DNA of 64,000 nt, taken from assembly GCF_003790525.1 (NCBI RefSeq), contig NZ_CP033635.1; one strand, written 5' to 3'. The DNA comes from Escherichia coli (GTDB lineage Bacteria; Pseudomonadota; Gammaproteobacteria; Enterobacterales; Enterobacteriaceae). Position 1 is the first letter of the stretch; every line of letters begins with the position of its first letter. The translations under genes were made by a program, and so were the position numbers. The notes beneath the pieces were generated by a model. It saw only the letters and a program-made list of their open reading frames with translations. It was not told the DNA's origin and ran no database searches. Positions 1,661-19,650 of the stretch are shown here, in pieces.

Positions 1661-4600
1661 TGTCGCCGAGACACTAGATCCTTTGCGCTTGCCCTTACAG
1701 GGCGAGCGCCTGATTGAAGCCTCTGCCGGCACAGGCAAAACCTTTACGATTGCGGCGCTCTATTTGCGCCTGTTACTTGGACTAGGCGGTTCTGCCGCCT
1801 TTCCCCGCCCGCTGACCGTTGAAGAACTGCTGGTGGTCACCTTTACCGAGGCTGCCACGGCAGAATTGCGCGGTCGTATCCGTAGCAATATCCACGAGTT
1901 GCGCATCGCCTGTCTGCGTGAAACCACCGACAATCCACTGTACGAACGCCTGCTGGAAGAGATCGACGATAAAGCGCAAGCCGCGCAGTGGTTGTTGTTA
2001 GCCGAGCGGCAGATGGATGAAGCGGCAGTCTTTACTATTCACGGCTTTTGCCAGCGCATGCTCAACCTGAATGCCTTTGAATCCGGCATGCTGTTTGAGC
2101 AGCAGCTGATTGAAGATGAGTCTCTGCTACGCTACCAGGCCTGCGCCGATTTCTGGCGTCGCCACTGCTACCCGCTGCCGCGTGAAATTGCCCAGGTCGT
2201 CTTTGAAACCTGGAAAGGGCCGCAGGCGTTACTGCGCGATATTAATCGTTATCTGCAAGGCGAAGCGCCGGTTATCAAAGCGCCGCCGCCCGATGATGAA
2301 ACGCTGGCTTCCCGCCACGCGCAAATTGTGGCGCGTATTGATACGGTAAAACAGCAGTGGCGCGACGCGGTGGGTGAACTGGATGCGCTGATCGAATCTT
2401 CTGGTATTGATCGACGCAAGTTTAACCGTAGCAATCAGGCTAAATGGATCGACAAGATCAGCGCCTGGGCAGAAGAAGAGACCAACAGCTATCAGTTGCC
2501 AGAGTCGCTGGAAAAATTCTCTCAGTGTTTCTTAGAAGATCGCACGAAAGCCGGGGGGGAAACCCCGCGACATCCACTGTTTGAGGCGATCGATCAACTG
2601 CTTGCAGAACCATTGTCGATCCGCGATCTGGTGATCACTCGCGCATTAGCTGAGATCCGCGAAACAGTAGCGCGTGAAAAACGCCGCCGTGGCGAATTGG
2701 GTTTTGATGACATGTTAAGTCGGCTCGATTCCGCGCTGCGTAGTGAAAGCGGCGAGGTATTGGCAGCGGCGATCCGTACGCGATTCCCGGTGGCAATGAT
2801 CGATGAATTTCAGGATACCGACCCCCAGCAGTACCGAATTTTTCGCCGTATCTGGCACCATCAGCCGGAAACCGCATTGTTGCTGATTGGCGACCCGAAA
2901 CAGGCCATTTATGCATTCCGGGGTGCGGATATCTTCACTTATATGAAGGCGCGTAGCGAAGTTCACGCCCACTACACCTTAGACACCAACTGGCGTTCCG
3001 CACCGGGAATGGTGAACAGCGTTAACAAACTTTTCAGCCAGACTGATGACGCGTTCATGTTTCGTGAAATACCGTTTATTCCTGTGAAATCTGCCGGGAA
3101 AAATCAGGCGTTACGTTTTGTGTTTAAAGGTGAAACGCAGCCTGCGATGAAAATGTGGCTGATGGAAGGCGAAAGCTGCGGCGTTGGCGACTATCAAAGT
3201 ACCATGGCGCAGGTATGTGCTGCGCAAATCCGCGACTGGTTACAGGCTGGGCAGCGCGGGGAAGCGTTGCTGATGAACGGCGATGATGCACGTCCGGTAC
3301 GTGCTTCGGACATCAGTGTGCTGGTGCGCAGCCGCCAGGAGGCCGCTCAGGTGCGCGATGCCTTAACGCTGCTGGAAATCCCTTCCGTTTACCTTTCGAA
3401 CCGCGACAGTGTTTTTGAAACTCTGGAAGCACAGGAGATGCTTTGGCTGTTGCAGGCGGTGATGACACCCGAACGTGAGAACACCCTGCGCAGTGCGCTG
3501 GCAACGTCAATGATGGGGCTGAATGCGCTGGATATTGAAACGCTGAATAATGACGAACATGCGTGGGATGCGGTAGTCGAAGAGTTCGATGGTTATCGGC
3601 AAATCTGGCGCAAACGTGGCGTTATGCCGATGCTGCGGGCGCTGATGTCGGCGCGTAACATTGCAGAAAACTTGCTGGCAACAGCAGGCGGTGAGCGGCG
3701 TCTTACCGATATCTTGCATATCAGCGAATTGCTACAAGAAGCCGGCACGCAGCTGGAAAGTGAACATGCGCTGGTACGCTGGTTATCGCAACATATCCTC
3801 GAGCCAGACAGTAATGCCTCCAGCCAACAAATGCGTCTCGAAAGTGATAAACATCTCGTGCAGATTGTCACGATCCACAAATCGAAAGGGCTGGAATATC
3901 CATTGGTCTGGCTGCCGTTTATCACCAATTTCCGCGTCCAGGATCAGGCGTTTTATCACGATCGCCACTCGTTTGAGGCTGTTCTGGATCTTAATGCTGC
4001 GCCAGAAAGCGTCGACCTCGCGGAGGCCGAACGTCTGGCGGAAGATCTGCGTTTGCTTTACGTGGCGCTGACGCGTTCGGTTTGGCATTGCAGTCTCGGC
4101 GTTGCACCGCTGGTGCGCCGTCGTGGCGATAAAAAAGGTGATACCGACGTCCACCAAAGTGCGCTCGGGCGTTTGCTGCAAAAAGGGGAACCGCAAGATG
4201 CGGCAGGGCTTCGCACCTGTATTGAAGCGTTATGCGATGATGATATTGCCTGGCAAACGGCACAAACTGGTGATAACCAGCCCTGGCAGGTTAATGATGC
4301 ATTAACTGCAGAACTGAATGCGAGGACGCTACAACGATTGCCCGGCGATAACTGGCGTGTCACCAGCTACTCCGGTTTGCAGCAGCGTGGTCACGGTATC
4401 GCTCAGGATCTGATGCCACGGTTGGATGTTGATGCCGCAGGCGTGGTCAGCGTCGTTGAAGAACCGACGTTAACACCGCATCAGTTCCCGCGCGGTGCGT
4501 CACCGGGGACATTCTTGCACAGTTTGTTTGAAGACCTCGATTTTACCCAGCCGGTTGACCCGAACTGGGTACAGGAAAAACTGGAGCTCGGTGGCTTTGA

Positions 4601-5195
4601 ACCGCAGTGGGAACCGGTGTTGACTGAGTGGATCACGGCTGTCCTCCAGGCACCTCTCAATGAAACGGGTGTTAGCCTGAATCAGCTTTCCGATCGCGAT
4701 AAACAGGTGGAGATGGAGTTTTACCTGCCGATTAGTGAACCGCTTATCGCCAGCCAGCTTGATGCACTAATTCGCCAGTTTGACCCGCTATCCGCTGGCT
4801 GCCCGCCGCTGGAGTTCATGCAGGTACGCGGCATGTTAAAAGGCTTTATCGACCTGGTATTCCGCCACGAAGGGCGTTATTACCTGCTCGACTATAAATC
4901 CAACTGGTTGGGTGAAGACAGTTCGGCTTACACCCAACAGGCTATGGCAGCGGCAATGCAGGCACACCGCTATGATCTGCAATATCAGCTTTATACCCTG
5001 GCGCTGCACCGTTATCTGCGCCATCGCATTGCTGATTATGACTATGAGCGCCACTTTGGCGGCGTTATTTATCTGTTCCTGCGTGGCGTTGATAAAGAAC
5101 ATCCGCAACAAGGGATCTACGCGACCCGACCCAACGCCGGGTTGATTGACCTGATGGATGAGATGTTTGCCGGTATGACCCTGGAGGAGGCGTAA
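1653..5195 (+). CDS. recB: RecBCD exonuclease V beta subunit (helicase/nuclease)
   Basis: ORF 1644..5195. From ATG 1653 the product starts [30 protein letters not shown] (Walker A) and is 1180 aa, which I recognise as RecB. The start overlaps the ptrA stop by 8 nt. Confidence 0.97.
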
Positions 5196-8645: not shown

Positions 8646-9899
8646 ATGTCAGGATCCAACACTGCAATCAGCCGTCGTCGTTTACTGCAAGGCGCGGGTG
8701 CCATGTGGCTATTGAGCGTAAGTCAGGTCAGCCTGGCTGCGGTCAGCCAGGTCGTGGCGGTGCGCGTCTGGCCTGCGTCCAGCTACACCCGCGTGACGGT
8801 AGAATCTAATCGTCAGCTGAAATATAAGCAGTTCGCGTTGAGTAATCCTGAACGCGTGGTGGTGGATATCGAAGATGTAAACCTGAACTCGGTGCTCAAG
8901 GGGATGGCTGCGCAAATCCGCGCTGACGACCCGTTCATCAAGTCGGCGCGCGTCGGGCAATTTGACCCGCAAACCGTACGTATGGTTTTTGAATTAAAGC
9001 AAAACGTAAAACCGCAGCTGTTTGCCCTTGCGCCGGTCGCCGGGTTTAAAGAGCGTCTGGTGATGGATCTCTATCCTGCCAATGCACAGGATATGCAGGA
9101 CCCGCTGCTGGCGCTGCTGGAGGATTACAACAAAGGCGACCTCGAAAAGCAGGTGCCGCCAGCACAAAGTGGTCCACAACCGGGTAAAGCTGGGCGGGAT
9201 CGTCCGATTGTCATTATGCTTGACCCTGGTCACGGTGGCGAAGACTCCGGTGCGGTGGGGAAATACAAAACACGCGAAAAAGACGTAGTATTGCAAATAG
9301 CTCGCCGTCTGCGCTCTCTGATCGAGAAAGAGGGCAATATGAAGGTGTACATGACGCGCAATGAAGACATCTTCATTCCGTTGCAAGTGCGCGTAGCAAA
9401 AGCCCAGAAACAGCGTGCTGACTTGTTTGTCTCTATCCATGCCGACGCCTTTACCAGTCGCCAGCCGAGCGGTTCCTCGGTGTTTGCGCTCTCAACCAAA
9501 GGCGCAACCAGTACTGCGGCAAAATATCTGGCACAAACCCAGAACGCCTCGGACTTGATTGGTGGCGTAAGCAAAAGCGGTGACCGCTATGTCGACCACA
9601 CTATGTTCGATATGGTGCAGTCGCTGACCATTGCTGACAGCCTGAAGTTTGGTAAAGCGGTGCTGAATAAGCTCGGTAAAATCAACAAGCTGCATAAAAA
9701 TCAAGTTGAACAGGCCGGGTTTGCCGTACTAAAGGCACCAGATATTCCCTCCATTCTGGTCGAAACGGCGTTTATCAGTAACGTTGAGGAAGAGCGTAAA
9801 CTGAAAACGGCGACTTTCCAGCAGGAAGTTGCGGAGTCTATTCTTGCGGGAATTAAAGCGTATTTTGCCGATGGGGCGACGCTGGCGAGAAGGGGATAA
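8646..9899 (+). CDS. amiC: N-acetylmuramoyl-L-alanine amidase AmiC (Tat-exported)
   Basis: ORF 8556..9899. The recognised AmiC starts at ATG 8646 ([18 protein letters not shown], twin-arginine signal) and is 417 aa. Confidence 0.95.
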
Positions 9900-10071
9900 T
9901 GTTTTTATTTATTCAATGAATTTATATTTCGTTGAATAGATAACATTTACCTGAATATTAGACGCTGGTTTTGTGACTGATGTCGGATATTTGAATGTCG
10001 GCTTGAAAAATAAGCCGACCATCTCTTTAATTAAGCACAATTCCGTGTAATGTATACGCATTAGTTAATCA

Positions 10072-10101
10072 TCTTGTAACTGTTAAATCAGGCAAGGCAA
10101 T
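10072..10101 (+). promoter_or_regulatory. RAT-like (ribonucleic antiterminator) element, probable target of the downstream BglG-family antiterminator
   Basis: tCTTGTAACTGTTAAATCAGGCAAGGCAat aligns by eye with the bgl/licT RAT consensus GGATTGTTACTG.....CAGGCAAAACC at about 20 of 29 positions. Its 3' part overlaps the left arm of the terminator stem. Confidence 0.6.
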
Positions 10102-10145
10102 GTTTGAAGTAATCATTACTTCTGACGTGCCTTGCCTTTTTTTTT
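10091..10145 (+). terminator. Intrinsic terminator in the leader of the island operon
   Basis: ggcaaggca (10091-10099) pairs with tgccttgcc (10128-10136). There is an inner gaagtaat/attacttc stem, followed by a run of 9 T (10137-10145) just before the antiterminator RBS and ATG. Confidence 0.8.
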
Positions 10146-10156
10146 GGAGCCATGAA

Positions 10157-10981
10157 ATGATCATCGAAAAAGTCATGAACAATAATTGTGTACAGGCATC
10201 GATGAATGGACAGGAGGTTATCATTTCTGGGCCTGGCGTCGGTTACAACAAAAAATATGGAATGTCGGTCCCTGAGCATCCGGCTAACCGGATTTTTTAT
10301 GTCAGAAATGAACAAAAAAATAAACTCTACAAATTGATTGAACATGTGGATATTGAGTATGTTTTTGTTGCCGAAAAAATAGTGCAATATGCGGAGAACA
10401 ATCTCGAAAAAAATCTCAATCCATCGCTACTATTGATTCTTGCTGATCACATTTCGAATGCAATATCCCGAGTCGCTTCAGGCATACAAATTAATAATGT
10501 TTTCCTTGATGAAATCAAAGCGTTGTACAAAGCAGAGTATGCGATAAGTCGCGATGCATTAACTATCATTAATGAGCAATTCAGCGTTCAACTTCCTGAT
10601 GATGAGATTGGTTTTATAGCATTGCATATTTTAAATAATTATGAAAATTCAGTTGATTATGAATCAGTACGGATTATTGAGTTGTCGCAAATAATCACGG
10701 GGCTTATTGAAGTTGTTTATAACAGAAAGGTGGACAGAAGTTCATTTAATTATTCCAGGTTCATGATACACCTTAAATATTTTTCAAGTCGCGTATTATG
10801 TAATGAAAAGATAAAACAAAAAGATATTGGTGACATCTATGAGCAGTTTCTTGAGAAAGACATCCTGTTACAGCGCGCAATTCATGAAATTGAACGGTAT
10901 CTGTATGCCACTTTTAAATATGAATTAATTTTAGAAGAAAAACTATATCTCTCAATTCGTACCAAAGTATTAATGGACTAA
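10157..10981 (+). CDS. BglG/LicT/SacY-family transcription antiterminator (CAT RNA-binding domain plus PRD domains)
   Basis: ORF 10100..10981. Starting at ATG 10157 (ggag RBS upstream), the N-terminus MIIEKVMNNNCVQASMNGQEVIISGPGVGYNKK matches the CAT domain pattern MKIxKVLNNNVV...G.E.I..G.GIGF. Its length of 274 aa is typical for the family. Confidence 0.85.
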   Translation: MIIEKVMNNNCVQASMNGQEVIISGPGVGYNKKYGMSVPEHPANRIFYVRNEQKNKLYKLIEHVDIEYVFVAEKIVQYAENNLEKNLNPSLLLILADHISNAISRVASGIQINNVFLDEIKALYKAEYAISRDALTIINEQFSVQLPDDEIGFIALHILNNYENSVDYESVRIIELSQIITGLIEVVYNRKVDRSSFNYSRFMIHLKYFSSRVLCNEKIKQKDIGDIYEQFLEKDILLQRAIHEIERYLYATFKYELILEEKLYLSIRTKVLMD

Positions 10982-11012
10982 TTATATATAACATTTATAT
11001 GAGATAACCCAC

Positions 11013-12593
11013 ATGAAACAAAAGAAAGCCTGGAGTTTTTTTCAGAGCCTGGGAAAGGCATTCATGTATCCCATTGCTCTGCTAAGTGTATGTGGCATGA
11101 TGCTAGGGCTGGGAAGTGGTTTAGCCAGTGATGATATGGCAAAGTTAATTCCATTTCTGGCTATTCCAATAATTAAAACCATACTTGATTTCATTGTTAG
11201 TCTTGGTTTGTTTGCCTTTGTTAATTTACCTGTATTGTTTGCGATAGCGATTCCCTTAGGATTATTAAAAGATAAAGAGGATAAAGCCTATGGTGCTTTT
11301 TCTGGCTTAATTGGTTTTATGGCGATGCATCTGGGAACGAACTTTTATCTTAAACAGCACGACTTATTGGTCGCTGCTGACCAAATGTCGACACATGGGC
11401 AAACCATCATTCTGGGGATCCAGTCCTACAATACCAGCGTGTTAGGGGGAATTGTTGCTGGGTTATTAGTCGCCAGCATGTATAAAAAGATCGTTAATTT
11501 ACGCATTCCTGAATCATTAGGTTTTTATAGCGGCCCACGTCTGGTGCCTATCATTACACTGATTGTGATGAGTGGATTTGGTCTGATCATCCCTTTTATC
11601 TGGCCGCCGTTTTTCAATCTTTTCATGCTCATTGGCCACTGGATTTCAACTTCCGGTCCTGTTGGCTATTTTTTCTATGCAGTCGCCGAACGCGTGACGA
11701 TACCTTTTGGTTTAAATCACCTGGTGACGTCAGTTTTCCGCTTTACCCCCATCGGCGGATCGGCAGTGATCGGCGGCGAAGAGTATTATGGCACCCTGAA
11801 CATGTTTATGGCGTACGTCAAAGAGAATGCGGTCATTCCGCTGGATTTGGCGGGGAAAATGGAACAGGGCAAACTGATGATTCAGTATGGTCTGGCTGGT
11901 GCCGCGCTGGCGATGTATCGCACTGCTCATGCTCAAAACAGAAAAGCTATCAAAGCATTGCTTATTTCCGGGGTGCTTACAGTCATTATTGGCGGCGTCA
12001 GCGAACCGATTGAGTTTCTGTTCTTATTTGTCAGTCCACTGCTGTTTGTCTTCCATGCATTTATGAATGGATTCGCCAACATGGTCTTGCCATATATGGG
12101 CGTGAAGATGGGATTTACTGGCGATCTGATTCAATTTATTAGCTTTGGCGTATTGCGTGGCACAAGAACAGGTTGGCCAATAGCGGTGTGTGTCGAAGTG
12201 GCCTATTTCTTTATTTATTACTTTGTGTTCCGTTGGACTATTCTCAAATTTAACCTGATGACGGTAGGCCGTGAAGAGTCCAGTCCTGTCACGCTGAACG
12301 CTCATGAGGATACGGCTATAGCGGATATCCCAACTCCTGATAAATCAGAGCTGCAAGCGGCGGAGCAGATGGTTAAGGCACTTGGTGGTAAAGAGAATAT
12401 TAAGTCACTGGATAATTGCGTAACTCGTTTACGTTTAACAATCGCAGATATGGGATTGCTTGACGAGGCTGCAATAAAAAGAGCCGGCGGAATTGCGGTT
12501 GTTAAACTTGATCAAAATACCCTACAAGTCATTATCGGTACTAAAGTCATCGCCTTGCGTCGGGATATGGATAACTACATGGGGATATGCTGA
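11013..12593 (+). CDS. PTS enzyme IICB, glucose/maltose (MalX/PtsG/GlvC-like) family; no EIIA domain
   Basis: 526-aa polytopic membrane protein whose N-terminus (FFQSLGKAFMYPIALL) is typical of Glc-family EIIC. The C-terminal EIIB domain carries the phosphorylatable Cys motif LDNCVTRLRLTIAD. Confidence 0.88.
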   Translation: MKQKKAWSFFQSLGKAFMYPIALLSVCGMMLGLGSGLASDDMAKLIPFLAIPIIKTILDFIVSLGLFAFVNLPVLFAIAIPLGLLKDKEDKAYGAFSGLIGFMAMHLGTNFYLKQHDLLVAADQMSTHGQTIILGIQSYNTSVLGGIVAGLLVASMYKKIVNLRIPESLGFYSGPRLVPIITLIVMSGFGLIIPFIWPPFFNLFMLIGHWISTSGPVGYFFYAVAERVTIPFGLNHLVTSVFRFTPIGGSAVIGGEEYYGTLNMFMAYVKENAVIPLDLAGKMEQGKLMIQYGLAGAALAMYRTAHAQNRKAIKALLISGVLTVIIGGVSEPIEFLFLFVSPLLFVFHAFMNGFANMVLPYMGVKMGFTGDLIQFISFGVLRGTRTGWPIAVCVEVAYFFIYYFVFRWTILKFNLMTVGREESSPVTLNAHEDTAIADIPTPDKSELQAAEQMVKALGGKENIKSLDNCVTRLRLTIADMGLLDEAAIKRAGGIAVVKLDQNTLQVIIGTKVIALRRDMDNYMGIC

Positions 12594-13768
12594 TGGATGT
12601 TTTTAATACTCCTATTTCCCGCAAAGGAACATATTGTACCCAATGGGACTTTTGCGAGGACAGATTTGGTGTAAAAGATGTATTACCATTCTCTATTTCA
12701 GATATGGATCTTCCGATACCAGACGCTATCACCAGAGCATTAAAAAAACGTCTGGAACACCCGATTTTAGGGTACAGCCGTTGGCAGCATGATGACTATC
12801 TGAATGCGATAGTCAATTGGTATCATCAACAATATAAAACTGAAATCAAACCAGAATGGATCACCTATAGCCCAAGCGTGATGTACTCCATTGCTAAAGC
12901 AATAGAGTTATTGACATCGCATGGTGATAATATTCTCGTTTTTACACCTGTCTATAATGCATTTTTTGATATAATTAAACATAGCGAGAGAAATATTCTG
13001 ACAGCCTCTTTGATTATAAAAAATGAGGGGGGCTACGCTATCAATTGGCAAGATTTTGATCTTAAGATTCAAAGCGCAAAGATGGTGTTATTATGTAATC
13101 CTCATAACCCGACAGGAACAGTCTGGTCGGAAGAAGAACTGCATAAAATCGCTGCAAGCTGTACAAGGCATAATGTCTGGTTATGTTCAGATGAAATCCA
13201 TAGTGATTTTGTTTTTAATCGTAGCTTTACATCCGCGCTTAAAATAAAAAAAGAAAAAGTAGTAGTATTTAACTCGATATCGAAAACATTTAATGTTCCT
13301 GCACTAACAGGATCGTATATGATTTCAACTGACGATAATTTTAATCATAAGTTCAGAACGATATCGAGGTATCGCGATTTTGTAAACTCCCCATCAGTAC
13401 TGAATATAATTGCAACTATTATTGCCTATAACGAATGTGAGGGATGGTTAAAGTCATTAAAGGCACATATTGCCTCTAACATTCAATTCACCCAGCAGTA
13501 TCTGAACGAAAACACTCCAGAATTGATCGTAAGGCCAGCTGATGGTTGCTATTTTTCGTGGATAGATTGCTCTGCTATTGGTTATCCCTTTGATGAATTC
13601 TACAGTCGATTAATTCATGAAGGCAAAGTGGGCATTATGGCGGGGAATGTCTATGGAACGGAGGGGGAGGGCTACCTTCGTCTGAACCTGGCCTGCGGTC
13701 GAGAAAAATTATATATGGGGCTTACGCGTCTTGCGAGTGTAATTAAAAATATTAATCAAGGAAAATAA
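12593..13768 (+). CDS. MalY/PatB-type PLP-dependent C-S lyase (class I/II aminotransferase fold)
   Basis: ORF 12587..13768. It aligns by eye with E. coli MalY along its length (GTYCTQWD, LPFSISDMD, GYSRW, NPHNPTG, SDEIHSD, SISKTFNVPALTG with the PLP lysine). Starting at ATG 12593 gives TGATG coupling to the PTS gene. Confidence 0.85.
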   Translation: MDVFNTPISRKGTYCTQWDFCEDRFGVKDVLPFSISDMDLPIPDAITRALKKRLEHPILGYSRWQHDDYLNAIVNWYHQQYKTEIKPEWITYSPSVMYSIAKAIELLTSHGDNILVFTPVYNAFFDIIKHSERNILTASLIIKNEGGYAINWQDFDLKIQSAKMVLLCNPHNPTGTVWSEEELHKIAASCTRHNVWLCSDEIHSDFVFNRSFTSALKIKKEKVVVFNSISKTFNVPALTGSYMISTDDNFNHKFRTISRYRDFVNSPSVLNIIATIIAYNECEGWLKSLKAHIASNIQFTQQYLNENTPELIVRPADGCYFSWIDCSAIGYPFDEFYSRLIHEGKVGIMAGNVYGTEGEGYLRLNLACGREKLYMGLTRLASVIKNINQGK

Positions 13769-13770
13769 AA

Positions 13771-14367
13771 ATGAACAGCACGGATCTTATCCATCTCATT
13801 AAACATTTTATGCGTAACGAACATAAAGCAGTTGAAGAAGTTATTGATTCCCCCCTTTCGGAGGTCGCAAATTTAATTAAAGTATTACAGTCTTGTCAGG
13901 GGAAAGTTGTTTTTATTGGTGTCGGTAAGTCCGGTATTATTGCCCGAAAACTCGCCGCAACATTTGCCAGCACTGGAACTCCCTCGTTTTTTGTTCACGG
14001 TACGGAAGCGGTACACGGCGACCTTGGAATGGTGGCGAAAGACGATGTTGTTATTCTTATTTCAAACAGTGGTGAGACGGCGGAAATCCTGGCGACACTG
14101 CCTAGTCTGAAAAAAATGGGTAATTATTTGATCTCTTTTACACGCAGTCATCACTCATCGCTTGCGATAAGTTGTGATTTATCCGTTGAAATTCCCGTAA
14201 AAAGTGAGGCGGATAATTTAGGTTTAGCGCCGTCATGCTCATCAACAGTCGTTCTGGTTGTTGGTGATGCGGTGGCGCTTGCGCTCTCCGAATTGAAAAA
14301 GTTTACTCGTGCTGATTTCGGCTTATATCATCCAGGAGGTGCGCTCGGTATTAAAGCAAACTCATAA
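13771..14367 (+). CDS. Single-domain SIS sugar-phosphate isomerase, KdsD/GutQ (arabinose-5-phosphate isomerase) type, lacking the CBS pair
   Basis: 198 aa. GVGKSGIIARKLAATFASTGTPSFFVHGTEAVHGDLGMV...ISNSGET...GLAPSCSSTVVLVVGDA...YHPGGALG closely parallels the SIS domain of KdsD. The protein ends where KdsD/GutQ CBS domains would begin. Confidence 0.85.
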   Translation: MNSTDLIHLIKHFMRNEHKAVEEVIDSPLSEVANLIKVLQSCQGKVVFIGVGKSGIIARKLAATFASTGTPSFFVHGTEAVHGDLGMVAKDDVVILISNSGETAEILATLPSLKKMGNYLISFTRSHHSSLAISCDLSVEIPVKSEADNLGLAPSCSSTVVLVVGDAVALALSELKKFTRADFGLYHPGGALGIKANS

Positions 14368-14438
14368 TTTCAAAATATAAATACAGTAACCGGTCACGCC
14401 ATCTTTTGGGGTGGCGTTCTTTGAAGTGAGTGTCAGCT

Positions 14439-15386
14439 ATGAAAAATGTTCTGGTCACCGTCCCCAGCTTTTCAGCACGCTGTGTTTCCGCCAGCAAGTT
14501 GCTAAGAGAGAATAATTTTAATCTTATTATTAAGAATAATGTGGAGCATCTGCTTAAATCAGAATCCACTGCATTACGAGAATCTATTTGCGCGGTCATC
14601 GCCGGAAAAGATTGTTATCAGGCGGACACGCTATCATTGCTGTCTGGTGTGAAAATAATATCGAGATTCGGGACGGGGATAGACAATATTGATCTTCGTG
14701 CGGCACAGCAATCCGGTATTGTTGTCAATAATGCGGTTGGGATTAATTCAAATGCGGTTGCGGAATTTATCATTGGACTTATCTTCGCGAGCATGAGAAA
14801 TATCCCCGGTAGCTATCATGCGATGCAAAATGGTTATTGGGGCGAGTCGCATGGCTGCGAGTTACAAGGTAAACGTATTGGCCTGCTTGGCTACGGCAAT
14901 ATTGGCAAAACACTGGCGAAAAGGTTATCTGGTTTTGATGTTGAGCTTTTAGCTTTTGACAAACAACCCGATTTCCAGGCCGCAGGCAAAGATGGAGTTC
15001 AGTTCGTATCAATTGAAGATATCTTTATGCAGTCTCATGTCATCATCGTTCTTTTGCCATTTTCTCCGGAGCTGGAGAACTTCATTAGTCATAAATATTT
15101 GTCGATGATGCGCAATGGTGCTCTGATCATCAACGCCGCAAGGGGAAAGTTGCTGGATGAGGGTGCTTTACTTCAGGTAATTGAAGAACGAAATGTTTTT
15201 GCAGCACTGGATGTGTTTAGCTCTGAACCGCTAGCGCAATTTAGCCCATTGCTACATGCCAAGAATATCATTACAACGCCGCATATTGCGGCCGCCACCG
15301 TTGAGTCATACCAGCAAACCGGGATATACGTTGCCCAGTCGATAATTGATTACTTCGCAGGAAGGGAGATAAAAAACGTGCTGTGA
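14439..15386 (+). CDS. D-isomer-specific 2-hydroxyacid dehydrogenase (SerA/PGDH-like), NAD-binding
   Basis: ORF 14430 (GTG)..15386. ATG 14439 has better RBS spacing (gtgag). It carries GLLGYGNIGKTLAKRL (GxGxxG) and the C-terminal TPHIAA motif typical of the family. Confidence 0.8.
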   Translation: MKNVLVTVPSFSARCVSASKLLRENNFNLIIKNNVEHLLKSESTALRESICAVIAGKDCYQADTLSLLSGVKIISRFGTGIDNIDLRAAQQSGIVVNNAVGINSNAVAEFIIGLIFASMRNIPGSYHAMQNGYWGESHGCELQGKRIGLLGYGNIGKTLAKRLSGFDVELLAFDKQPDFQAAGKDGVQFVSIEDIFMQSHVIIVLLPFSPELENFISHKYLSMMRNGALIINAARGKLLDEGALLQVIEERNVFAALDVFSSEPLAQFSPLLHAKNIITTPHIAAATVESYQQTGIYVAQSIIDYFAGREIKNVL

Positions 15387-15411
15387 GTTCAGCTAAGGAA
15401 TATTTCAGGTA

Positions 15412-15447
15412 CAAAAAAACCGCAATTTGTGAAACACATTGCGGTTT
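15412..15447 (-). terminator. Intrinsic terminator downstream of metV (minus strand); may also stop the convergent island operon
   Basis: The minus strand reads aaccgcaat-gtgtttcacaa-attgcggtt followed by TTTTTTT (A-run 15413-15419 on plus). It lies 17 nt after the tRNA 3' end. Confidence 0.8.
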
Positions 15448-15464
15448 ATCAGCATCATAAGTGT

Positions 15465-15541
<77 letters not shown>

Positions 15542-15575
15542 TCACCGTACTGCTTTTACTTCATCAAATTTTGAT

Positions 15576-15652
<77 letters not shown>

Positions 15653-15685
15653 TCACCGTACTGCTTTACTTCATCAAATTTTAAT

Positions 15686-15762
<77 letters not shown>

Positions 15763-15775
15763 TCCGTGGATGCGC

Positions 15776-15803
15776 ACTATACTCTGCTCGCGTTTTCATG
15801 CAA
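15776..15803 (-). promoter_or_regulatory. Putative sigma70 promoter of metZWV
   Basis: The minus strand reads TTGCAT-16 nt-TATAGT followed by a GC-rich GCGC discriminator. An A/T-rich tract lies upstream. The -10 element lies 14-19 nt upstream of the mature tRNA 5' end. Confidence 0.5.
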
Positions 15804-15970
15804 CCTTTTTTTTACCCCGATCACGGATTTGGCATGATTTTGAACAAAAACAAATCACTAAAGCCTATTTTTTGTGCAAAATTTGCGTCGGGGAGAGGCT
15901 GCTCATTTCATTAAACGCGGCGGTTTGTTATCTTCGTTGCGCCTTATTTTTTAACCTGAAGAAGAGAACA

Positions 15971-17068
15971 ATGAAAGGACGTTGGGTAAAGTACCTTCTT
16001 ATGGGCACGGTTGTGGCAATGCTTGCCGCCTGCTCTTCCAAACCAACCGATCGCGGACAGCAATATAAAGACGGGAAATTTACCCAGCCTTTCTCTCTGG
16101 TGAACCAGCCAGATGCCGTTGGCGCGCCGATTAACGCCGGTGATTTTGCCGAGCAAATTAACCATATCCGTAATTCGTCACCGCGTCTGTATGGCAACCA
16201 GAGTAATGTTTATAACGCGGTGCAAGAGTGGCTGCGCGCAGGCGGTGATACCCGCAATATGCGCCAGTTCGGCATTGATGCCTGGCAGATGGAAGGTGCC
16301 GACAACTATGGTAACGTGCAGTTTACCGGTTATTACACGCCAGTAATTCAGGCGCGCCATACCCGCCAGGGCGAGTTTCAGTATCCGATTTACCGTATGC
16401 CGCCAAAACGTGGTCGTCTGCCGTCTCGTGCGGAGATCTACGCGGGGGCATTGAGCGATAAATACATCCTCGCTTACAGCAACTCTCTGATGGATAACTT
16501 CATTATGGATGTGCAGGGTAGTGGGTATATCGACTTTGGTGATGGCAGTCCGCTTAACTTTTTCAGCTATGCAGGGAAAAACGGTCATGCCTATCGCAGC
16601 ATTGGTAAGGTGCTGATCGACCGTGGCGAAGTGAAAAAAGAAGATATGTCGATGCAGGCGATTCGTCACTGGGGTGAAACACACAGTGAAGCCGAGGTTC
16701 GCGAGCTGCTGGAACAGAACCCGTCTTTCGTCTTCTTTAAACCGCAATCTTTTGCTCCGGTGAAAGGGGCAAGTGCGGTGCCGCTGGTTGGTCGCGCTTC
16801 AGTTGCGTCCGATCGTTCCATTATCCCGCCTGGTACAACCTTACTGGCAGAAGTGCCGCTGCTGGATAATAACGGCAAATTTAACGGTCAGTACGAACTA
16901 CGGCTGATGGTGGCGTTGGATGTCGGTGGTGCAATCAAAGGCCAACACTTCGATATTTATCAAGGTATCGGGCCGGAAGCCGGACACCGCGCAGGTTGGT
17001 ACAACCACTATGGACGTGTTTGGGTGCTGAAAACCGCCCCGGGCGCAGGTAACGTCTTTAGCGGCTGA
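15971..17068 (+). CDS. mltA: Membrane-bound lytic murein transglycosylase A (lipoprotein)
   Basis: ORF 15689..17068 is artificially extended over the tRNA genes. The recognised MltA starts at ATG 15971 (MKGRWVKYLLMGTVVAMLAAC lipobox) and is 365 aa. Confidence 0.95.
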   Translation: MKGRWVKYLLMGTVVAMLAACSSKPTDRGQQYKDGKFTQPFSLVNQPDAVGAPINAGDFAEQINHIRNSSPRLYGNQSNVYNAVQEWLRAGGDTRNMRQFGIDAWQMEGADNYGNVQFTGYYTPVIQARHTRQGEFQYPIYRMPPKRGRLPSRAEIYAGALSDKYILAYSNSLMDNFIMDVQGSGYIDFGDGSPLNFFSYAGKNGHAYRSIGKVLIDRGEVKKEDMSMQAIRHWGETHSEAEVRELLEQNPSFVFFKPQSFAPVKGASAVPLVGRASVASDRSIIPPGTTLLAEVPLLDNNGKFNGQYELRLMVALDVGGAIKGQHFDIYQGIGPEAGHRAGWYNHYGRVWVLKTAPGAGNVFSG

Positions 17069-17103
17069 TGTGTTATTCTGTATACCGTTTTGACGGATAC
17101 GAC

Positions 17104-17131
17104 AGGGTGAGGGATAACCTCGCCCTTTTTA
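17104..17131 (+). terminator. Intrinsic terminator after mltA
   Basis: agggtgagg / cctcgccct stem (one G-U pair) with loop gataa, followed by TTTTT. Confidence 0.6.
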
Positions 17132-17144
17132 ATTCTGAGGTGCT

Positions 17145-17951
17145 ATGTCTGTGGTAATTAGTGATGCATGGCGTCAGCGTTTTGGTGGCACAGCGCGTCT
17201 GTATGGTGAAAAAGCATTGCAACTGTTTGCTGACGCGCATATTTGTGTGGTTGGTATCGGTGGTGTCGGTTCCTGGGCGGCGGAAGCGCTGGCGCGCACG
17301 GGGATTGGCTCAATCACGCTTATCGATATGGATGATGTGTGCGTCACCAATACCAATCGGCAAATTCATGCCCTGCGCGATAACGTTGGGCTGGCAAAAG
17401 CGGAAGTTATGGCGGAGCGTATTCGCCAGATTAACCCGGAGTGCCGTGTAACGGTGGTGGATGATTTCGTGACGCCGGATAACGTAGCGCAGTATATGAG
17501 CGTGGGTTATTCGTACGTGATTGATGCCATTGATAGTGTACGGCCCAAAGCGGCGCTGATTGCTTATTGTCGGCGCAATAAAATCCCACTGGTCACAACC
17601 GGTGGCGCGGGTGGGCAGATTGACCCGACGCAGATTCAGGTTACCGATCTGGCGAAAACGATTCAGGACCCGCTGGCGGCGAAGTTGCGTGAGCGCCTGA
17701 AAAGCGATTTTGGCATAGTGAAAAACAGTAAAGGTAAGCTCGGCGTGGATTGCGTGTTCTCTACCGAAGCGCTGGTGTACCCGCAGTCAGATGGCACGGT
17801 CTGTGCAATGAAAGCTACGGCGGAAGGGCCAAAGCGGATGGATTGTGCATCTGGATTTGGTGCCGCGACGATGGTGACCGCCACCTTTGGTTTTGTTGCG
17901 GTTTCTCATGCGCTGAAGAAGATGATGGCGAAAGCGGCGCGTCAGGGGTAA
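17145..17951 (+). CDS. tcdA: tRNA threonylcarbamoyladenosine dehydratase (E1-like, CsdL)
   Basis: 268-aa ORF with a ThiF/MoeB-type GIGGVGSW nucleotide-binding motif. Recognised as TcdA (YgdL), next to csdAE. Confidence 0.93.
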   Translation: MSVVISDAWRQRFGGTARLYGEKALQLFADAHICVVGIGGVGSWAAEALARTGIGSITLIDMDDVCVTNTNRQIHALRDNVGLAKAEVMAERIRQINPECRVTVVDDFVTPDNVAQYMSVGYSYVIDAIDSVRPKAALIAYCRRNKIPLVTTGGAGGQIDPTQIQVTDLAKTIQDPLAAKLRERLKSDFGIVKNSKGKLGVDCVFSTEALVYPQSDGTVCAMKATAEGPKRMDCASGFGAATMVTATFGFVAVSHALKKMMAKAARQG

Positions 17952-17957
17952 ACAATC

Positions 17958-17990
17958 AGGTCGGATGCGACGCAAACGTCCTTTCCGACC
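17958..17990. repeat. REP-like element between tcdA and csdE
   Basis: ggtcggatgcgacgcaaacgtcctttccgacc resembles the REP consensus (GATGCGACGC...CTTATCCGRC). Confidence 0.55.
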
Positions 17991-18001
17991 CGGTTCTGTG
18001 C

Positions 18002-18445
18002 TTAAACCTGCTTCGCCGCAGCGATAATCGCCTCGCTTAACGCATTCAACCCCTGGCTGCGTGAGGCGCTAAGTTGCGCACGCAATCCCAGCTCATCAAA
18101 CAATGCCAGCGGCGACTGTGCCTGCAATTCGGCGGCGGTTTTGCCCTCAACGGCAGTCAACAACACCGCAAGCAGGCCGCGCACAATGCGTCCTTCGCTG
18201 TCGCCAAAGAAATGCATCTTGCCGTTTTCAGCCATGGTATATCCCAGCCAGACGCGGTTTTCGCATCCGGCAATCTCTTTAGCCTGCGCTTTTAACTCGT
18301 CTGGCAAAGCCGGCAGCTGTTTCCCCAGCATGATCAACTGGCGATATTTATCTTCCCATTGCGACAACGGTGCGAAGGTATTGCGTAACGTTTCTGCGGT
18401 TACGGTTGTGCCGAACGGATGTCCGGCGAATTGCGGGTTCGTCAT
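18002..18445 (-). CDS. csdE: Sulfur acceptor protein CsdE (SufE-like)
   Basis: 147-aa ORF recognised as CsdE (YgdK). Its ATG overlaps the csdA stop (TAATG). Confidence 0.93.
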
Positions 18446-19650
18446 TAATCCACCAATAATTCCAGCGCGCGGTCAACGGCATTCACCAGCGCATCCACAT
18501 CACTCTTTGTATTATATGGCGCAAAAGAGGCGCGCAGTGTGCCGGTTACGCCTAATTCTGCCAGTAGCGGCTGAGCGCAATGCTGCCCGGCCCGCAGGGC
18601 AATACCGTACTCCGCCAGCAGTGTCACCATATCGCTGTGATGAACTCCAGCAAAATCAAAGGCCAGCAGGCTGGAATCCTGGCAGCGGAATGAACGAAAG
18701 CCTGGACGTTTCGCCAGCGCTTCTTCTGCAAGCGTTGCTAAGCTACGGCTCCAGCTTTCGGCCTGGTTGATATCGTAATCTGTCAGCCATTCCAGCGCCG
18801 CGCTTAATCCTATGACGCCAGCGACATTTGGCGTTCCTGCTTCCAGTTTCCACGGCGCAGATTGAGTCGTGAAGCCGTCAAAACTCACTTCGTGAACCAT
18901 TTTGCCGCCGCCCAGCCAGGGCGACATCGCTTCCAGCAGTTCTGGTTTGCCATACAGCACGCCGATGCCTGTCGGGCCATACAGTTTGTGACCTGAAAAA
19001 GCATAGAAATCAATATCCAGTTGCTGAACATCCGCGGGGAAATGCACCGCCCCCTGAGCACCATCAACCATCACCACCATCCCGGCTGAATGAGCAAAAG
19101 TAATCGCTCTCGCCAGATCCGGGCAACCGCCAGTGACGTTCGACATCTGGCCCAACGCCAGAATCCGACTACGGGGAGTAATCAGTTCTGGCAACAAATC
19201 GACATCCGGCAGTCGCTGCGCATTAAGCGGCAATTTCACCACTTTGGCCCCCGTTTGTTGGGCGACCATCAGCCAGGGGACGAGGTTGGCGTGGTGTTCT
19301 GCCACACTGACAATAATTTCATCGCCCGGTTGCAGACGCGGACGCGCATAGCATTGTGCCACCATGTTGATGGATTCAGTGGTGCCGCGCGTCCAGACGA
19401 TAGTTTTATCATCCGGTGCATTCAGTAATTGTGCCACTTTTTCCCGCGCAGCTTCGTAACGCGCGGTCAGGCGTTGGGCTTCGGCAAACTGGCTGCGATG
19501 GACGTTTCCGGCGCTCAGGCTATAAAACTGTCGGGTGGCTTCAACCACGGCTTCAGGTTTAAGCGCGGTCGCGGCGCTGTCGAGATAGACGCCCGCATCC
19601 TGTAGCGCGGGAAACTGGGCGCGAAACTGCGCGGGATTAAAAACGTTCAT
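18445..19650 (-). CDS. csdA: Cysteine sulfinate desulfinase / cysteine desulfurase (PLP)
   Basis: ORF 18445..19686. The recognised CsdA starts [16 protein letters not shown] at 19650 and is 401 aa. Confidence 0.95.

Follow-up and report, generated by a model that had tools for sequence, protein, structure and literature searches.

The bglGFB operon of Escherichia coli carries a ribonucleic antiterminator (RAT) laid over a leader terminator directly upstream of an autoregulated antiterminator gene, followed by a gene for an enzyme II (EII) of the phosphotransferase system (PTS), and possesses two terminators, t1 and t2, the second RAT/terminator standing between bglG and bglF. In the LicT, SacY, SacT and GlcT systems of Bacillus subtilis (licT-bglPH, sacXY/sacB, sacPA and glcT-ptsG) a dimer of the CAT domain binds the RAT, and EII and HPr phosphorylate the PRD domains of the same protein. 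For nagY-nagE of Enterococcus faecalis only one RAT/terminator, placed upstream of the antiterminator gene, has been documented; autoregulation was shown there by experiment, and compensatory changes conserve the terminator. A single 5' gate with autoregulation was described for B. subtilis sacXY (PMC9981650). Here we analysed a stretch of 64,000 nucleotides from E. coli (contig NZ_CP033635.1 of RefSeq assembly GCF_003790525.1; hereafter the window, whose positions are used throughout) in which an antiterminator gene of this kind, at the head of a five-gene accessory operon, is preceded by a leader containing a RAT and a terminator on the plus strand at 10072-10145. Overall, we place the probability at roughly 85% that this leader is a BglG/SacY-family antitermination switch where the RAT/terminator gates both the operon and the antiterminator gene. 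The switch is a slightly truncated addition to the RAT/terminator switches already known in this family and its mechanism is ordinary; its single gate is not new, as the same arrangement was documented for nagY-nagE and described for sacXY.

The RAT hairpin was located at 10072-10097 (26 nt), with the core sequence TTGTAACTGTTAAATCAGGCAAG at 10074-10096. Its lower stem consists of U10072.G10097, C10073:G10096, U10074:A10095, U10075:A10094 and G10076:C10093, followed by an internal loop in which U10077, A10078 and A10079 face G10092 and by an upper stem of CUG (10080-10082) paired with CAG (10089-10091) that is capped by the apical loop UUAAAU. A preliminary description of this DNA had matched the segment to the RAT consensus at about 20 of 29 positions, and the 29-mer 10071-10099 was indeed identical to the consensus of six known RATs at 20/29 positions, keeping 14 of the 19 positions that are invariant in those six. 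Pairwise identity was 16/29 to K-12 bgl t1 and 21/29 to B. subtilis sacB and sacPA, where the E. coli RAT sequences were verified and the mutual relations of the B. subtilis ones are consistent with those described in PMC1635312. The sense strand of the leader matches the family core (UUGUNACUG, a loop and CAGGCAA) exactly at 10074-10094, and the core pattern TTGTNACTG-N3-9-CAGGCA occurred once in the 64-kb window, for which 0.01 occurrences were expected. A RAT-only covariance model (R1), built from six known RATs and scoring 44 bits on both K-12 bgl RATs, matched the window significantly at one place, 10074-10096 (score 20.2 bits, E 0.0026; a local match to model positions 4-26), the next best reaching 11.9 bits (E 0.87). 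In four orthologous loci the corresponding site was matched as well, with scores of 20-22 bits.

The intrinsic terminator hairpin at 10090-10137 (plus strand) comprises 21 bp and folds at -28.1 kcal/mol (z = -7.8), an energy equalled by none of 200 shuffles. It is composed of a 10-bp outer stem, in which AGGCAAGGCA (10090-10099) pairs with TGCCTTGCCT (10128-10137), and of 4-bp and 7-bp inner stems (10101-10104/10124-10127 and 10106-10112/10116-10122), and it runs into a U-tract of nine T at 10137-10145, the first of which is paired with A10090; other E. coli strains have eight to nine T at this place. The inner stem and the nine T had been recognised in the preliminary description, whereas the outer stem had been given there as 9 bp and is one pair longer. 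A Shine-Dalgarno sequence, GGAG (10146-10149), is kept in all orthologues and lies 7 nt before the antiterminator ATG at 10157, which is the twelfth nucleotide after the T-run, as had been stated, and is identical to the RefSeq start. An in-frame upstream ATG at 10100 (open reading frame (ORF) 10100-10981) was considered as an alternative start and rejected, since insertions or deletions of one nucleotide near the T-run in strains would break the frame and the RefSeq start lies at 10157. A mini-ORF, ATGAAATGA, is also present at 10152-10160, with GGAG just 2 nt upstream.

The RAT and the terminator have 8 nt in common (10090-10097), as the 3' half of the RAT (10089-10097) lies over the 5' arm of the terminator (10090-10099); the earlier proposals that this half serves both structures and that the two folds are mutually exclusive are therefore borne out by the folding predictions. 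In the equilibrium fold of the full leader the terminator pairs had probabilities of 0.5-1.0 and the RAT pairs of less than 0.003. Prefix folding gave the RAT as the minimum-energy fold for transcripts with 3' ends at 10098-10106 and 10122-10130, and it was displaced from 10134 on. Enforcing the RAT cost 11.2 kcal/mol and left a residual hairpin that ends at 10130, which should not terminate because its end is 7 nt from the U-tract. This energetic layout is, as modelled, that expected of a protein-stabilised antiterminator. An extended basal stem of the RAT, pairing C10070-A-U with A10100-U-G, was also evaluated and rejected, as the pairing was not kept in orthologues.

Ten distinct leaders from Escherichia (including divergent E. 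coli lineages), Citrobacter and Atlantibacter were aligned, the antiterminators being 93-100% identical in E. coli and E. whittamii and 77-80% in Citrobacter murliniae, Citrobacter sp. FP75 and Atlantibacter hermannii. The RAT core was invariant in 22 of its 23 columns, the exception being RAT position 8, a known specificity position, where A is replaced by C in A. hermannii, and the rest of the terminator was invariant in 20 of 40 columns. Terminator pairing was nevertheless retained in 94.8% of cells across the ten sequences, with both partners replaced in two of the pairs, such as G10097:C10130, which is A:U in Citrobacter, and the orthologous terminators folded at -26 to -28 kcal/mol, that of A. 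hermannii forming a re-registered perfect 21-bp stem (-28.3 kcal/mol). A site fixed in sequence, as for a protein, beside a terminator fixed in structure is, as far as this alignment indicates, the pattern expected of an antitermination mechanism. In C. murliniae the leader and operon are found between a fadE-type acyl-CoA dehydrogenase/CN-hydrolase pair and an RNase T-like gene, and not at amiC, indicating that the switch is part of the module rather than a terminator for amiC. In the window a separate hairpin at 9997-10019 lies after amiC and is likely to be that gene's own terminator.

These results bear on a simpler explanation, namely that the leader is a plain terminator or insulator shielding the island from amiC read-through and that the RAT-like motif is a chance resemblance without a protein partner. 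Such a resemblance could be argued from the weakness of the RAT alone, whose fold of -6.3 kcal/mol was matched or bettered by 8 of 200 shuffles, from its missing basal stem and from the lack of any Rfam match. We nevertheless regard chance as very improbable, as so rare a motif shares nucleotides with the terminator arm immediately ahead of a CAT-PRD gene and is invariant in three genera while neighbouring positions vary. The occurrence in Citrobacter with the operon at a locus other than amiC, and the presence of a hairpin of its own after amiC, also speak against a shielding function.

Some sequences recovered together with the orthologues deserve brief mention. In the C. murliniae locus (L003; 9449-10162 and 3370-6151) the MalY-like ORF is just 237 aa and may be a pseudogene. 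Weak R1 matches (13-14 bits, E 0.2-0.35) occurred at matching positions within the dehydrogenase ORF of both Citrobacter loci (L003, 11465-11506; L005, 11460-11501), had no counterpart in E. coli and are probably due to chance. An apparent homologue of 57% identity (L007) proved to be a Logan contig of this very E. coli locus riddled with errors and was discarded, and a 250-bp contig in a Hallella faecis (Bacteroidota) assembly (L006), encoding 65 residues 100% identical to the antiterminator N-terminus, is almost certainly contamination.

The antiterminator gene (10157-10981, plus strand) encodes 274 aa with a CAT RNA-binding domain followed by PRD1 and PRD2 (Pfam CAT_RBD, residues 1-55, 54.3 bits; PRD, 93.3 bits) and is annotated in RefSeq as 'PRD domain-containing protein'. 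Matches in the PDB to LicT, a BglG-family protein and GlcT (E 1e-28 to 1e-31) spanned CAT, PRD1 and PRD2, and the protein aligned with LicT over its full length. The next gene encodes a PTS permease, and both genes had thus been correctly identified in the preliminary description. The NCBIfam models for LicT (NF046042, 225.7 bits, cut-off 300), GlcT (NF047357, 178 bits, cut-off 320) and BglG (NF007295, 104.4 bits, cut-off 322) all scored below their cut-offs, and the next full-length homologues, besides poor or shortened copies of the E. coli gene, were LicT-like proteins of Firmicutes with about 35% identity. Judged by these comparisons the antiterminator is a distinct lineage within the family. 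Three of the regulatory histidines are kept (H98, H157 and H205, corresponding to LicT H100, H159 and H207), and the fourth, in PRD2 (LicT H269; residue ~268 here), is Arg in E. coli, Citrobacter and Atlantibacter and is likewise absent from BglG, which has Asn, whereas the Firmicute relatives have His. The LicT residues that contact RNA are 5-10, G26, R27, F31 and Q32 (PMC3105407). Equivalents of several of these are kept in the antiterminator (K5, N8-N10 and G25), and the equivalent of Q32 is Asn31, as in SacY. The sequence elements of the switch, the exclusivity of its folds, its conservation and the domain content of its locus are established by these analyses.

Comparison with the described systems showed both likenesses and differences. 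As in bgl, a RAT lies over the leader terminator directly upstream of the antiterminator gene with the PTS gene behind it, the core UUGU-ACUG...CAGGCAA is common to both, GGAG follows the T-run as at bgl t2, and both systems are situated in AT-rich DNA. The two proteins are however only 25% identical, the bgl permease is a beta-glucoside EIIBCA and not a MalX/glucose-class EIICB, and the downstream enzymes here do not include a phospho-beta-glucosidase. In contrast to the two terminators of bgl, the 31-nt spacer between the antiterminator and PTS genes (10982-11012) contains only a -2.6 kcal/mol AT hairpin without a T-run, an R1 match or a hairpin conserved in orthologues, and a second RAT or terminator was found nowhere in the operon of E. 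coli or its orthologues; the earlier suggestions that this gap is empty and that the whole operon, unlike bgl, is gated at a single point are both upheld. A hairpin at 10278-10293 followed by TTTTTAT inside the antiterminator gene was examined as a second gate and rejected, as its pairing was lost in Citrobacter and Atlantibacter and a scan found fewer such sites than in shuffles. The operon shares with nagY-nagE the order of antiterminator and PTS permease and the single upstream gate. For its part, nagY-nagE belongs to a Gram-positive host, has a divergent RAT-like sequence whose overlap is to the terminator foot with the consensus GCRUGGA, serves N-acetylglucosamine and has a second NagY target, hylA.

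The B. subtilis systems provide the closest solved structures and NCBIfam models (LicT and GlcT), the regulatory logic that is applied here by analogy, and several individual likenesses, including G26 of the RAT, which is also found in the sacB and sacPA RATs. The GlcT system additionally resembles the present locus in that its partner is a glucose-family permease. Unlike the antiterminator gene here, glcT is not known to lie behind its own terminator. The GlcT RAT is characterised by two near-symmetrical triple-base motifs (PMC1635312). The LicT-like operons of Clostridium tertium and Thermoanaerobacterium, which encode the nearest protein relatives outside Enterobacteriaceae, share the order of antiterminator and EII and a RAT upstream of the antiterminator gene, and the C. 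tertium RATs have UGUAACUG...AUCAGGCAA in common with the RAT described here. They differ in that they continue with EIIBCA and then a phospho-beta-glucosidase of glycoside hydrolase family 1. In C. tertium (locus L018) three full-length RATs were observed, one upstream of licT (3799-3826) and a tandem pair (4866-4895 and 5074-5103) in the interval from licT to the EIIBCA gene.

Several observations weigh against reading this leader as a RAT/terminator switch of the family. The RAT has an upper internal loop only (UAA opposite G) and is without the lower internal loop and the basal G1G2:C28C29 stem; the designation 'textbook' in the preliminary description was therefore overstated. The closest protein relatives, those of Firmicutes, have full RATs of 29-30 nt (34-40 bits), two or three per operon and also between the antiterminator and EII genes. 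In the CAT domain the equivalent of R27 is Pro (Pro26, as in SacT) and the otherwise strictly conserved Phe (F31) is Tyr. Covariation within the RAT was not seen in the ten leaders, where the RAT hardly varies. A consensus scan found no sigma-70-like promoter on the plus strand upstream of the RAT. Lastly, the Rfam model RF03530 (bglG-cis-reg) gave no match in a 1.3-kb leader scan at E <= 10, and a scan of 9000-19000 with Rfam at the same threshold likewise yielded no match in the leader. The silence of RF03530 is uninformative for this leader, since in a control of the same scan size the genuine K-12 bgl RATs scored only 24.3 bits (t2) and 22.4 bits (t1) against a gathering score of 80. The expectation that a covariance model would detect the element accordingly failed for the Rfam model, which is insensitive even to genuine bgl, and held for the RAT-only model.

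These structural departures bear on the class of RAT. The locus possesses the RAT core, the overlap of RAT and terminator, a protein with CAT and two PRDs and a linked EII permease that characterise the broad CAT/PRD RAT-terminator family. The two-loop 29-nt subclass (LicT/SacY/SacT/BglG-type) is defined by closure through G1:C29 and G2:C28, and here positions 1, 2 and 29 are A, U and A, with positions 2-6 paired continuously with 23-27 in a 5-bp lower stem (U2.G27 in Escherichia, which becomes U2:A27 in Citrobacter and Atlantibacter, then C3:G26 onward). This RAT was consequently kept out of the two-loop subclass, because the basal closure is missing and only the upper loop is predicted, whereas the RATs of LicT, SacY and SacT contain two internal loops, with G1G2:C28C29 as the closure. 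In the LicT-RAT complex both internal loops are contacted by the symmetric CAT dimer, the lower loop by one dimer half (PMC3105407). A tentative and rather doubtful extension is that a one-loop RAT, combined with a CAT domain carrying Pro for Arg27 and Tyr for the invariant Phe, might be recognised asymmetrically by the CAT dimer or outside the LicT-RAT mode, and would in this manner gate a pathway that depends on the PTS, comprises the C-S lyase, SIS isomerase and dehydrogenase and is enriched among extraintestinal pathogenic E. coli.

Alternatively, the RAT could be recognised in trans by another CAT-PRD protein such as BglG, instead of or besides the adjacent protein. In B. subtilis, cross-talk of RATs with antiterminators other than their cognate ones has been documented (PMC1635312, PMC3105407), and the core nucleotides are common to the bgl RATs, yet the RAT differs from these at the specificity positions 3, 8, 26 and 27 as well as in the absence of the lower loop. 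As the adjacent protein has diverged so far from BglG, and RAT and protein were co-inherited in genera that carry them at a different locus, we consider recognition in trans extremely improbable.

The operation of the antitermination switch can be envisaged as follows. Transcription would start within 10020-10070 and pass the RAT (10072-10097) and then the terminator (10090-10137) with its U9. By default the terminator, being ~11 kcal/mol more stable, would prevail and transcription would end 11 nt short of the start codon of the antiterminator gene. An active antiterminator would, as a CAT dimer, bind and stabilise the emerging RAT, keeping 10089-10097 off the 3' arm of the terminator; the leftover hairpin, ending 7 nt short of the U-tract, could not terminate, and polymerase would read on through the antiterminator gene into the four that follow. 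Without substrate, phosphorylated EIICB would phosphorylate PRD1 (H98/H157) and thereby inactivate the antiterminator, and in the presence of substrate the phosphate would be drawn off to the sugar; HPr may act on PRD2 at H205. RNA binding by the antiterminator, its control by phosphorylation and the dependence on a sugar are features that we infer by homology, and by the same analogy the activity of the switch is most likely set by the PTS, with EIICB as the presumed sugar sensor and the presumed kinase/phosphatase acting on PRD1. Because the antiterminator gene lies behind its own terminator, the circuit would be one of positive feedback and require basal read-through for its onset.

A conserved 5' block of the module at 10020-10073 (plus strand), which begins where the similarity between E. 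coli and Citrobacter/Atlantibacter sets in at ~10020 (CATCTC), presumably holds the promoter and the leader start, and any promoter in it should be weak or atypical because the consensus scan found no sigma-70-like site. Another possible reading is that the switch is real and the operon is largely cryptic like K-12 bgl, H-NS-type silencing of a weak promoter being dominant, the RAT/terminator secondary and an activating event such as insertion of an insertion sequence (IS) needed. The GC content of the island (31-46%, compared with 50-55% in the flanks) and the lack of a consensus promoter are in line with silencing, as is the very strong terminator with the antiterminator behind it, which would make induction from zero difficult. 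In strain ES7 (NZ_CM184333.1; L014, 1372-2352), moreover, an IS5-like element, ISEc68, has inserted at TTAG 10061-10064 and parts the RAT from the presumed promoter block, a situation reminiscent of the IS1 and IS5 insertions by which the silent K-12 bgl operon is activated. Against this, 1686 genomes carry the operon intact and those examined showed a single IS insertion, so that dominant silencing appears unlikely. Silencing at the promoter may well exist, however, as a layer added to the antitermination mechanism, which it would not contradict.

The operon consists of genes for the antiterminator, a MalX-like EIICB, a MalY/PatB C-S lyase, a SIS isomerase and a 2-hydroxyacid dehydrogenase, labelled in RefSeq, in this order, as PRD-domain protein, PTS EIIC-type transporter, MalY/PatB-family protein, KpsF/GutQ-family isomerase and phosphoglycerate-type dehydrogenase. 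The EIICB (11013-12593) belongs to the glucose/maltose class (Pfam PTS_EIIC 248.6 bits and PTS_EIIB 52 bits; TIGR02004 PTS-IIBC-malX 538.8 bits, below the cut-off of 632). A domain search of the operon proteins found no EIIA domain; going by E. coli MalX and PtsG, a MalX-like EIICB without EIIA would depend on EIIA-Glc. It is followed by a pyridoxal phosphate-dependent C-S lyase of the MalY/PatB family (12593-13768; TIGR04350 368.8 bits, above the cut-off of 340, in agreement with RefSeq) and by a SIS-domain sugar-phosphate isomerase resembling KpsF/GutQ/KdsD and lacking CBS domains (13771-14367; Pfam SIS, with partial matches to NCBIfam KdsD and kpsF). The last gene encodes a D-2-hydroxyacid (phosphoglycerate-type) dehydrogenase (14439-15386, RefSeq start; Pfam 2-Hacid_dh_C, and NCBIfam PGDH at 211.8 bits, below cut-off), and all of these genes are on the plus strand.

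The gene order in the window is recD, argA, amiC, the five operon genes, three tRNA-Met genes (metZWV, opposite strand), mltA and tcdA, and over 9880-15460 its sequence and the E. coli SMS-3-5 chromosome (NC_010498.1) are 100% identical. The five genes represent a 5.6-kb insertion relative to K-12, since only 73 bp separate amiC and metV there and the two sequences diverge from the very stop codon of amiC (TGA in K-12, TAA in the window) to a point immediately ahead of metV; in the window the island at 9897-15466 stands in place of this spacer. The cluster corresponds to c3405-c3410 of strain CFT073, within PAI-CFT073-metV, and was reported to be retained in four uropathogenic strains, E2348 and SMS-3-5 and highlighted as characteristic of uropathogenic strains (PMC2831201). 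In strain BEN2908 the cluster bears the name 'GR 19', its regulator having been given as 30% identical to BglG (PMC12928451), and neither PMC2831201 nor PMC12928451 mentions a leader RNA element. In CFT073 and BEN2908 the same module forms the amiC-proximal end of a 32-36-kb island. Among 5426 complete E. coli genomes the cluster was present in 1689 (~31%), and 1686 of the 5426 covered at least 80% of the query and were essentially intact.

The switch offers a regulatory handle on c3405-c3410, an uncharacterised accessory operon typical of extraintestinal pathogenic E. coli. With gating at one point by its own antiterminator, a constitutive antiterminator or a deletion of the terminator should turn the operon on and allow a search for the substrate, and the shortened RAT may be viewed as a small natural experiment on the minimal needs of a CAT domain. 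Beyond this the mechanism changes no general understanding and its practical use is modest. The exact RAT string was absent from the literature searched, a search that did not extend to Gordon et al. 2015, who reportedly surveyed RATs in K-12 and one uropathogenic genome. Deletions in PAI-metV are said to have been made by Lloyd et al. 2009.

Three further elements were observed around the operon. A near-perfect inverted repeat, TATTCAATGAA ... TTCGTTGAATA, occurs at 9912-9945, just past the amiC stop and upstream of the 9997-10019 hairpin, in the Escherichia-specific part of the island. At the other end, a hairpin AAACCGCAAT...ATTGCGGTTT at 15417-15447 is followed by a T-run on the minus strand and resembles a terminator for the tRNA operon metZWV, possibly acting as a bidirectional stop for the island operon too; in K-12 the hairpin at the corresponding place differs in sequence. 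A match to naRNA4 below the Rfam threshold (23.6 bits, E 0.93) at 17910-17990 on the minus strand, at the 3' end of tcdA, is probably an element of the repetitive extragenic palindromic (REP) type.

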